From a virus (taxonomy: Duplodnaviria > Heunggongvirae > Uroviricota > Caudoviricetes), in IMG/VR virus record IMGVR_UViG_3300045988_155334: a stretch of DNA of 64,000 bases, one strand, 5' to 3'. The position numbers and the translations under genes were made by a program. The stretch's first letter is position 1, and each line of letters begins with the position of its first letter. This document shows positions 46,716 through 48,585 of this stretch, piece by piece. A model generated the notes under the pieces. It did not search any database, had not been told where the DNA came from, and saw only the letters and a list, made by a program, of their open reading frames with translations.

Positions 46716-47222
46716 TTGAGTATTTTCAATAAACACGCACACCAGGAACGTCCGTACATCGTCATAGTAGATATTGATGGGACGATATCAGAGGCAACGG
46801 AAGACAGGCTGCATTTGCTTCCACCACCTGGCAAAGGTGCATTAACAGAGCACTGGAACGAGTTTAACCTTGCCTGTGACACCGATACTCCCATCACTCC
46901 AGTTATTGATATGGTGCGCCAGTTATTTAACGTTTACACGGTCTGGTTTGTAACCGGGCGCTGTGAGATCGCAAGGGATAAAACACGAGCCTGGCTGCGG
47001 AAGTACGTAACAAACGGGGCTGAGCCTTTGCTATCTATGCGTCCTGCCACCGATGACAGAAATGACGGCCCAGCAAAGATTGATCTCCTTAAGAAAATTG
47101 GTCTAAGTAAAATCGCGTTCGCGCTGGAAGATAAGATTGAAGTGGCGCGTGTTTTCAGAAGTCACGGTGTACTTACGTTAATGGTCAGGGAGTATGAAAA
47201 CGCGCTTCTTCATCAACAATAA
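46716..47222 (+). CDS. HAD-superfamily phosphatase-like protein
   Basis: 168 aa; motif I VDIDGTI; fold resembles polynucleotide 3'-phosphatase or nucleotidase. Confidence 0.55.
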   Translation: MSIFNKHAHQERPYIVIVDIDGTISEATEDRLHLLPPPGKGALTEHWNEFNLACDTDTPITPVIDMVRQLFNVYTVWFVTGRCEIARDKTRAWLRKYVTNGAEPLLSMRPATDDRNDGPAKIDLLKKIGLSKIAFALEDKIEVARVFRSHGVLTLMVREYENALLHQQ

Positions 47223-47238
47223 TTGCTCTAATAAATCT
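47222..47238 (+). promoter_or_regulatory. C1 operator overlapping the promoter of the rightward accessory operon
   Basis: ATTGCTCTAATAAATCT, 16/17 match. Confidence 0.6.
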
Positions 47239-47320
47239 TGATTTTTAAAACAGAGAAAGTGAAAATAAAAACATGCCGCAAGGCGCGGCATGTATCCAAT
47301 CAATCACAGGAGCTGAAAAT

Positions 47321-47407
47321 ATGAACACGGCATTCAAAATCATTATGGCCGCGATCTATTTCTGGCTGTTCTCTATCACTTTTGGCGGCATCGTCGCACA
47401 TGGGTAA
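47321..47407 (+). CDS. 28-aa hydrophobic peptide, first ORF of a C1-operator-fronted operon
   Basis: MNTAFKIIMAAIYFWLFSITFGGIVAHG; strong ribosome-binding site CAGGAG 8 nt upstream. Confidence 0.4.
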   Translation: MNTAFKIIMAAIYFWLFSITFGGIVAHG

Positions 47408-47416
47408 GGGGGATGC

Positions 47417-48142
47417 ATGAAAGGCGAAGTGAAAGAGCGCGGCATGATTTTCAACGATGAGATGGTCCGGGCCATCCTCGAAGGAAGGAAAACGCAGACG
47501 CGGCGGATAATGAAAAATCAGCCTGCGGAAGTTGGTCCAGAAGCACCAGTGATGGTTAGAAAAATTGGTGCAGGTTTTCAGTGGTACGGGGCTGATGGTG
47601 TAAGCAGTGTTTTCAATTGCCCCTTTGGTATCGTCGGCGATCGAATTTGGGTTCGTGAAACATGGGCGATATTAGGCAATGAGGATGGTTGCAGTGTGGA
47701 CTGGAACGACAACCTTTGTCGTGGCGATGAGAAGAACGCAGCAAGGATTTATCGGGCCAGTTGCGAGCAAAAACCTGGTGATTACGGCTTATGGTCGATA
47801 CCCGATGATGCCGACTGGAAACCTCACACTGTGAATGAAAAGTTTGATGGTGGGTGGCGTCCATCAATTCACATGCCGCGATGGGCATCACGCATCCTGT
47901 TGGAAATTACCAACGTGCGCGTTGAGCGGTTGAACGATATCAGCGAATGCGATGCAAGGGATGAGGGCGTTCCGCCTGCTGGAAGTTTGCTTCCTGATCA
48001 CCCGGGAACATTCCTTACTCCCAAGGGGGATTTCGCAATGGCCAAGGTTGCGTTCCAGCGCCTGTGGGAATCCATCTACGGCGAAGAAAGCTGGAGTGCT
48101 AATCCCTGGGTTTGGGTAATCGAGTTTGAGCGTATTCAGTAG
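47417..48142 (+). CDS. ASCH-domain (PUA-like) protein
   Basis: 241 aa; FNDEMVRAILEGRKTQTRR N-terminal signature. Confidence 0.5.
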   Translation: MKGEVKERGMIFNDEMVRAILEGRKTQTRRIMKNQPAEVGPEAPVMVRKIGAGFQWYGADGVSSVFNCPFGIVGDRIWVRETWAILGNEDGCSVDWNDNLCRGDEKNAARIYRASCEQKPGDYGLWSIPDDADWKPHTVNEKFDGGWRPSIHMPRWASRILLEITNVRVERLNDISECDARDEGVPPAGSLLPDHPGTFLTPKGDFAMAKVAFQRLWESIYGEESWSANPWVWVIEFERIQ

Positions 48143-48151
48143 GGCGAGCGT

Positions 48152-48373
48152 ATGCAATCAGTTATTTGTGAGGAAGTCGGCCTGAATAAAGCATCCCCAG
48201 CAGAGTTAAGAACAAGTCTCGAAATGGCGCATAGCCTTGCTCAAATTGGTGTCAGGTTTGTACCAATTCCAGTTGAAACAGATGAAGAATTTCACAGGTT
48301 AGCGGCATCGGCAGCACAAAAGCTGGAAATCATGGCAGCGAAAGTAGAGAAAGCTGAAGGAGCGACAAAATGA
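48152..48373 (+). CDS. Small hypothetical protein
   Basis: 73-aa ORF, translationally coupled to the next. Confidence 0.35.
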   Translation: MQSVICEEVGLNKASPAELRTSLEMAHSLAQIGVRFVPIPVETDEEFHRLAASAAQKLEIMAAKVEKAEGATK

Positions 48374-48585
48374 GCAAGCCAACCGACGAAGAAATAGTTC
48401 GGGTGTTGGAAGAACACGGGCGCTGTATGACTTACGTCGTGACCAACTGGCTTAGGGATAAATATCGCACACTCAAAACGGCATACGTTTTGCGTCGTCT
48501 AAAGAAACTGGAGTTCGACGGGAAAGTAAAGCGCGTTAACAGTTCTTATATAAGACAAATTTGCTGGGAGGCATCCAGTGAGTAA
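48370..48585 (+). CDS. Small winged-helix-like DNA-binding protein
   Basis: 71-aa ORF. Confidence 0.35.
   Translation: MSKPTDEEIVRVLEEHGRCMTYVVTNWLRDKYRTLKTAYVLRRLKKLEFDGKVKRVNSSYIRQICWEASSE

Follow-up and report, generated by a model that had tools for sequence, protein, structure and literature searches.

A 28-codon reading frame between pap and pmgT of P1-like phages as a probable small membrane-protein gene

Does the interval between pap and pmgT in phage P1 and its relatives hold a gene that annotation has passed over? The question is raised by a small open reading frame (sORF) of 28 codons in a 64,000-nt stretch of DNA (hereafter the window; IMG/VR record IMGVR_UViG_3300045988_155334). 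The window derives from a P1-like phage: around the locus, 1.8 kb are 98–99% identical to P1 records. An earlier reading of the letters of the window (the original prediction) had proposed that this sORF encodes a hydrophobic peptide and forms the first ORF of an operon controlled by the C1 repressor, and had pointed out that such peptides easily escape annotation. The ORF is indeed absent from the reference record of P1 (AF234172), which leaves the interval between pap and pmgT without a gene, and likewise from that of P7; other records give it apparently wrong starts. Based on comparisons with diverged relatives, the sORF is very probably a real, conserved protein-coding gene. We put the probability at roughly 0.72 that it is a genuine gene and the first cistron of the C1-repressed Op88/pmgT early operon, making a non-essential accessory small membrane protein.

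Reading frame and coding status

The sORF occupies positions 47321–47407 of the plus strand and translates to MNTAFKIIMAAIYFWLFSITFGGIVAHG. Its ATG lies at 47321 and its stop codon TAA at 47405–47407, 9 nt upstream of the ATG of the next gene (47417). Upstream, positions 47294–47320 of the plus strand comprise an A/C-rich unpaired linker (CCAATCAATCAC, also read as ATCCAATCAATCAC), the Shine-Dalgarno (SD) sequence AGGAG (47308–47312), and an 8-nt spacer. The ribosome-binding site is thus as strong as had been predicted, and it is unpaired. Immediately behind the sORF, positions 47408–47419 of the plus strand hold the SD (GGGGGA) and the ATG of the next gene, at a distance typical of translational coupling.

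An open frame of 28 codons is by itself common, and one alternative explanation holds that it arose by chance within a plain 5' untranslated leader, or that it encodes a leader peptide controlling a downstream terminator. In 50,000 dinucleotide shuffles of the 194-nt intergenic stretch, however, AGGAG followed at 5–10 nt by ATG and an ORF of at least 28 codons occurred with a frequency of 0.15% (a chance of 0.0015). None of the 50,000 shuffles also attained the hydrophobicity of the sORF (grand average of hydropathy, GRAVY, of 1.30).

The same arrangement was found in more diverged P1-like elements. In the Cronobacter phage JK004, whose Pap is 72% identical to that of the window, pap is followed by the same operator, a GC hairpin of other sequence, CCAATCAATCACCGGAGC, and the ATG of a 53-codon hydrophobic ORF. 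Salmonella P1-like phage-plasmids have no pap and show the arrangement after pmgS with an ORF of 46 codons; within the protein collection, 389 contigs carry this form. Two further subtypes came to light through profile searches, in assemblies of the Sequence Read Archive that are syntenic with P1 (pmgR-pmgS-(pap)-sORF); their four contigs encode forms of 53 (P0026, P0027, and P0030) and 48 amino acids (P0031). In the five subtypes beyond the P1 type, the ATG is located 6–8 nt past GGAG(C) and the frame remains open for 46–53 codons. The motif AATCA[C/T][C/A]GGAGC is kept in all subtypes and is unpaired in the predicted folds. Residues M1, K6, A11, and W15 are invariant across the family, and F/I5 and Y/F13 nearly so. 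The original prediction had named loss of the reading frame in relatives as one of the findings that would count against the ORF; frame, start, and SD turned out to be kept in all five diverged subtypes.

Coding between subtypes was assessed with six diverged members over codons 2–25, using a sum-of-pairs BLOSUM62 score and permuted alignment columns as the null. The frame of the sORF scored 965, compared to 343 ± 119 for the null (z = 5.2), a value reached in 0 of 20,000 permutations. The other five frames scored between 458 and −58 and all contained stops; the sORF frame alone is open in all six members. Variable columns were distributed over the three codon positions as 20:9:22. Second positions are thus the most conserved, as expected where hydrophobic residues are retained. 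Nei-Gojobori ratios of nonsynonymous to synonymous substitution rates (dN/dS) were 0.22–0.39 among the 53-amino acid forms and 0.09 for the helix part of loci L098 and L100. What is conserved between subtypes is the amino acid sequence, rather than runs of regulatory codons. As close relatives of P1 are too alike, it is this evidence from distant relatives that is decisive for the status of the sORF as a gene.

The substitution pattern within the P1 type is not decisive and leaves the chance or leader explanation some room. The conservation of frame, start, and amino acids across subtypes argues against it, and so does the geometry of the locus: the sORF stop lies −4 to +9 nt from the next start, and no structure is predicted there. 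A regulatory leader peptide, one of the roles suggested originally, is unlikely because, at this spacing, alternative terminator structures would not fit ahead of the downstream start codon. Overall, we regard a chance ORF or an attenuation leader as very improbable.

Where the ORF has been annotated, its start varies. A 44-amino acid version is given in SJ46 (locus L003, 3173–3307) and by the Prokaryotic Genome Annotation Pipeline (PGAP; WP_001312275.1, locus L191, 452–586). JK004 gene_94 (locus L095, 2709–2825) begins at the internal Met16 and comprises 38 amino acids; the conserved SD-ATG gives 53. The 44-amino acid start was rejected, as it lies within the hairpin and has no SD, and as an in-frame stop in the other subtypes closes the frame that it would open. 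In the non-P1 subtypes, an in-frame stop upstream of the conserved ATG fixes the start codon, and both the 44- and the 38-amino acid starts are therefore probably wrong.

In the literature on P1 and on phage small proteins, no ribosome-profiling or proteomic data were found for the sORF, and a literature search on Op88 and pmgT returned nothing about it. By term search, pmgT did not come up in either a P1 knockout/proteome paper or a P1vir RNA-seq paper. In a passage of a review on phage small proteins, Coi and Lxc alone are named for P1 (PMC11323111). According to the CRISPR interference (CRISPRi) essentiality map of P1, pap, pmgT, pmgU, and pmgV are non-essential for lytic growth; the sORF is not listed among them (PMC10695390).

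Scans of the sORF against Pfam, NCBIfam, PHROG, and PADLOC gave no family match, with a best E no lower than 0.08. An exhaustive hidden Markov model search of 1.84 billion representatives returned 11 hits only, and those that were retrieved or recognizable match forms traced to P1-like loci. Judged by these searches, the sORF family is a new family of small phage membrane proteins confined to P1-like phages and phage-plasmids.

The peptide and its predicted topology

What kind of protein would the sORF encode? All members possess one hydrophobic stretch of 19 residues (best-window GRAVY 2.0–2.4) with Lys6 on its N-terminal side; in the window, the hydrophobic helix covers approximately residues 7–25. 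AlphaFold2, supplied with the family alignment, modeled a helix over residues 2–27, with predicted local distance difference test values of 86–92 over the first 20 residues. The single hydrophobic helix read from the ORF at the outset is in agreement with both results. The long forms (46–53 amino acids) additionally carry a net-acidic C-terminal tail with a Tyr-containing motif (TIYCD, ASYDCD, or VIYQND). The location of Lys6 on the N-terminal side of the hydrophobic stretch, together with the acidic C-terminal tail, suggests an N-in/C-out orientation, and the peptide is probably a single-pass membrane helix oriented in this way.

Homology between the P1 type and the other subtypes extends to approximately codon 25, where the P1 form ends, which identifies the latter as a tail-less derivative. 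The tail was probably lost when the pmgT cargo module took the place of the DNA that originally lay downstream.

Two other assignments were considered. A cleavable signal peptide appeared unlikely by inspection, given the core of ~19 residues, an AXA-like site in the Salmonella type only, and the lack of a mature part in P1. A holin was rejected because the sORF belongs to a C1-controlled early operon, has a tail that is acidic (long forms) or absent (P1), and is located away from the annotated lysis genes.

MgtR, KdpF, AcrZ, and MgrB are small single-pass proteins of the enterobacterial inner membrane that act through their transmembrane helix. Like them, the sORF product has fewer than 50 residues and one hydrophobic helix, is encoded in an operon, and is prone to omission by annotation. 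Unlike them, it is restricted to P1-like elements, stands under an early promoter controlled by a phage repressor, and is partner-less so far; no sequence relationship to the four proteins was found. Reviews on small membrane proteins are listed in PMC11323111.

Operator, promoter, and 5' hairpin

How would the sORF be expressed? The stop codon of pap, as read from the sequence (47220–47222), stands directly before a C1 repressor operator on the plus strand (47222–47238; ATTGCTCTAATAAATCT), the OpmgT (former Op88) of P1. It agrees at 16 of 17 positions with the asymmetric 17-bp C1 consensus ATTGCTCTAATAAATTT, with one mismatch. Seven sites with at most two mismatches to this consensus were found in the window, compared to 0.01 expected. 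In AF234172, OpmgT/Op88 is annotated as a monovalent C1 operator together with two overlapping predicted sigma-70 promoters, P1pmgT and P2pmgT. Predicted promoter P1pmgT (47238–47266, plus strand) consists of a −35 element TTGATT (47238–47243), a 17-nt spacer, and a −10 element GAAAAT (47261–47266). The alternative P2pmgT, on the same strand, has its −35 element at 47223–47228 and its −10 element at 47246–47251.

The same operator is located upstream of every sORF homologue. In all subtypes, the −35 element (TTGATT or TTGTTT) begins on the final base of the operator and is followed by a 17-nt spacer and a −10 element of the form nAnAAT. The operator and the predicted promoter proposed upstream of the sORF are present, and the C1-controlled operon of which it is the first ORF can be named as the Op88/pmgT operon. 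As in the C1-controlled early operons of P1 (Op72-ban, Op86-pmgR/S, and Op88-pmgT), an asymmetric 17-bp C1 operator overlaps a sigma-70 promoter. Whereas the annotated Op88 operon starts at pmgT, an extra conserved cistron and a conserved 5' hairpin lie upstream of it here, both unannotated in AF234172.

The short GC hairpin described downstream of the promoter was found at 47271–47293 on the plus strand, at or near the predicted 5' end of the mRNA. It has 9 bp (47271–47279 paired with 47285–47293) and a 5-nt loop, and the folding energy of this P1 form is −16 to −17 kcal/mol (z = −2.8). In every subtype, a hairpin of −11 to −20 kcal/mol starts approximately 6 bases after the −10 element, and the hairpin sequences are unrelated among subtypes (CATGCCGC..., AGGCCAC..., GGCCGC..., and GGCGGTCGC...). 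A compensatory change from G:C to A:T distinguishes the hairpins of L098 and L100. Within the P1 type, the loop is free to vary (AAGGC, AAGAC, and AAGGGGC), and of the four single substitutions in the stem, three replace C by T and thereby retain a G.U pair on the plus strand, one of them in 21 copies. This variation weakly favors a structure at the mRNA level. The hairpin would then be the 5'-terminal stem-loop of the operon mRNA, the start site being a predicted one, and is probably stabilizing. The 5' untranslated region (UTR) of ompA is an example of a 5'-terminal stem-loop that stabilizes a bacterial mRNA. Similar to stem-loops of the ompA type, a stable hairpin near the predicted transcript start precedes an unstructured ribosome-loading region; in contrast to them, the start site and an effect on half-life are predictions here.

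The hairpin also bears on a further alternative, namely that the sORF encodes a membrane toxin. According to this explanation, the product would be a depolarizing peptide of a type I toxin-antitoxin system or a lysis-type effector, curbed by an antisense RNA terminating at the hairpin. TisB, DinQ, and the Ibs-type toxins are small hydrophobic peptides, and the sORF peptide resembles these, as well as Hok, in length and hydrophobicity. Scored on the minus strand, the hairpin of P1 reads as a terminator, followed there by TTTTATTTT. Furthermore, Rfam gave a sub-threshold match to GcvB on this strand (20 bits compared to a gathering score of 42); no Rfam family reached its threshold in the scan. 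The T-run of the minus strand is, however, absent in the Salmonella, JK004, L098/L100, and L104 subtypes, all of which keep the hairpin, and no acceptable minus-strand promoter was found at the locus. A minus-strand terminator with an antisense RNA was rejected on these grounds.

The layout of the locus differs from that of type I toxins in further respects. Unlike the loci of TisB, DinQ, Ibs, and Hok, it has no conserved antisense elements, its SD is strong and unpaired instead of sequestered, and the sORF opens a polycistronic operon whose transcription is controlled by a protein repressor, C1. Because of these three features, the toxin role that had been put forward does not match the layout of a type I system. 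In addition, the sORF is not adjacent to lysis genes, and the acidic tail of the longer forms is unlike that of holins. We consider a toxin improbable.

For the gene of a small membrane protein, which we prefer, the following course of events is proposed. In the lysogen, C1 bound to the operator would block the overlapping promoter, as expected from established P1 biology and the annotation of the record. Upon induction or fresh infection, RNA polymerase would start a few bases upstream of the stable hairpin, so that the hairpin would form the 5' end of the mRNA, which it probably protects from 5'-end-dependent decay. Ribosomes would load at the unstructured A/C-rich linker with its strong SD and synthesize the 28-residue peptide. 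Judging from hydropathy and charge, the peptide would enter the inner membrane as a single N-in/C-out helix whose Lys6 faces the cytoplasm. Ribosomes terminating 9 nt short of the ATG of the downstream gene would probably couple its translation to that of the sORF. The most likely role is that the transmembrane helix would act on a membrane component of the host or the phage early in lytic development.

Downstream cargo, variation, and significance

The second cistron (47417–48142, plus strand) encodes a PmgT-like protein of 241 amino acids, as identified from the ORF list, the pmgT annotation of P1, and PHROG 874, a family without an assigned function. It had originally been called an ASCH-domain gene. 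The sORF does precede it, and PGAP and public labels say ASCH, but Pfam and NCBIfam gave no hit; in a sequence search of the PDB, the best E was 0.88, to ASC-1. Approximately 30 nt short of the stop codon of this gene, similarity to reference P1 breaks off (48112–48142, compared to L001 ~4012, AF234172). The PmgT annotated in P1 has 309 amino acids and overlaps pmgU by ~200 nt; the 3' end of pmgT may represent a further mosaic junction or an annotation problem. Further down the operon, an ORF of 71 amino acids (48370–48585) has, by eye, the look of a small winged-helix-type protein and is a candidate only; it may be related to the protein of ~105 amino acids that follows the sORF in the non-P1 subtypes.

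The junction between the sORF stop and the next start reads TAA-N9-ATG in P1, TAA-N4-ATG in the Salmonella type, TGATG in L104, and ATGA in the 53-amino acid types, and the last codons of the sORF carry the SD of the next gene. The identity of this gene varies from PmgT in P1 to a protein of ~105 amino acids with weak MarR/TrmB-type Pfam hits in other subtypes. A conserved partnership of sORF and pmgT was rejected, since pmgT homologues of Yersinia, Klebsiella, and Edwardsiella phages have no sORF upstream and the second gene differs outside the P1 type.

A recurrent mosaic (cargo) junction is located just past the sORF stop, at 47411–47412. In many P1-like plasmids, similarity stops at 47411 and is followed by a converging type I hsdR. 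Other junctions fall within the stop codon of the sORF (several database variants) or after codon 19. These positions agree with "variable region 8" of P1-like phage-plasmids, which corresponds to pmgT-humD (PMC9603915). As far as the sequence junctions indicate, the sORF is the marker of the left edge of a cargo-exchange hotspot.

Individual elements illustrate the range of insertions. In L067 (4719–8354, minus strand of the locus) and L113, the sORF breaks off after codon 19 and gives way to AT-rich DNA that encodes an inverse autotransporter of the intimin/invasin type (1,211 amino acids). The autotransporter gene points in the same direction as the Op88 promoter and would be an adhesin carried as phage-plasmid cargo. 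In the IncY plasmid NZ_AP027786.1 (L007, 3262–3340), which is of the hsd type, the Op88 promoter and the sORF stand head-on to hsdR, with a hairpin alone (CTTGCGGGTT...AACCCGCAAG) between sORF and hsdR. Owing to this orientation, phage induction could drive transcription antisense to hsdR. Hundreds of IncF-type plasmids contain only an 84-bp sliver of the sORF (47328–47411; L005 and L006, 3001–3084), followed by a converging type I hsdR. The boundary that cuts the sliver after codon 2 is one that we take to be an IS1 end. The sliver looks like a trace of an hsd cassette that has left a P1-like phage-plasmid. The 84-bp copies were dismissed as an independent argument for function and are uninformative, being truncated after codon 2 and passengers of hsd cassettes. 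Among 5,426 complete E. coli genomes, the full locus was present in 564, and the sliver only in ~320 more.

How constrained is the short peptide of the P1 type? Neither a frameshift nor a nonsense mutation was found in 163 intact copies of this type. In the copies followed by a pmgT-type start, the peptide was altered in 4 of 114, in each case by a singleton transversion. Synonymous variants recur in the same 114 copies, at Ile12 (six copies), Ile24 (two), and Ala26 (61 and two). Nucleotide diversity among P1-like copies was ~0.046 in pap (46716–47219), ~0.049 in the operator/promoter region, and ~0.013–0.016 in the post-hairpin UTR and sORF (47260–47411). The drop includes synonymous sites and reflects either a different recombination history or an extra constraint at the nucleotide level.

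Several points weigh against a functional small membrane protein in P1. Transcription start, translation, and membrane location are predictions from the DNA sequence, and the scans of Pfam, NCBIfam, PHROG, and PADLOC yielded no family or partner match that offers a functional clue. The conserved residues did not cluster significantly on one face of the helix (p = 0.23). Within the P1 type, dN/dS is weakly below 1: for 78 hairpin-anchored loci, the event-based value was 0.44 (p = 0.077; p = 0.07 for the 163-copy set), compared to 0.21 (p ~1e-17) for the neighboring pap, the within-P1 ratio being underpowered as a coding test. Codon-position periodicity is absent within this type (6:6:6). In hsd-type copies, the peptide was altered in 28 of 48 (A10T in nine, G23S in 13, G22D in four, G28R in three, and others). 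Their transition-only ratio of nonsynonymous to synonymous changes (N:S) was 11:7 and showed no difference from the neutral 55:26 (p = 0.35). The truncated form of 28 amino acids may, on these counts, be under weak or context-dependent constraint. Between distant subtypes, synonymous sites are saturated, so dN/dS values are rough there. Furthermore, the sequences share ancestry, and some loci may have entered more than once from different collections.

These numbers bear on an explanation in which the forms of 46–53 amino acids are functional and the 28-codon ORF of P1 is an inert, truncated relic that feeds ribosomes to the downstream gene. The relic would persist as the carrier of the promoter, the 5' hairpin, and the strong ribosome-loading site. 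The P1 form indeed has no tail and with it no copy of the conserved Tyr-containing motif that the other subtypes share, and the sORF stop and the next start are tightly spaced. Moreover, the peptide is near-invariant only before pmgT, compared to the many replacements and the neutral-compatible N:S found before a converging hsdR. Pure coupling would, however, constrain translation and not residues, yet all replacements in the pmgT-type copies are singletons while synonymous variants recur. All 48 hsd-type copies keep an intact frame, and the next gene carries its own SD. In addition, many of the hsd-type replacements are located at positions that vary in the family. A10T and G23S introduce residues found in other members, and T20I and N2S are likewise among the replacements that match residues or residue classes of other members. 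The data fit purifying selection on the peptide when pmgT follows and relaxed selection otherwise. Because counts are small and lineages non-independent, the relic explanation keeps appreciable weight, and we judge it unlikely rather than remote.

If the sORF is the gene of a small membrane protein, as we favor, the consequences concern a classic and closely annotated model phage, and P1-like phage-plasmids, a widespread group of elements that carry resistance genes and other cargo. The map of the Op88/pmgT operon is in need of correction, public records give inconsistent start codons, and gene-by-gene screens such as the CRISPRi map never scored the sORF. The sORF unit would supply a promoter, a stabilizing hairpin, and a ribosome-loading site to cargo inserted behind it. 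More tentatively, the family may constitute a dedicated early effector, a minimal transmembrane peptide that binds a specific host inner-membrane protein and alters its activity, and, at the same time, a fixed "expression head" for swapped cargo. In the latter capacity, it would serve pmgT modules, type I restriction systems, and adhesins. As an effector made once C1 repression lifts, it might contribute to, for example, host takeover, superinfection exclusion, or defense evasion. A specific membrane target, if true, would make the sORF product a tractable addition to the few phage small membrane proteins of known mechanism.

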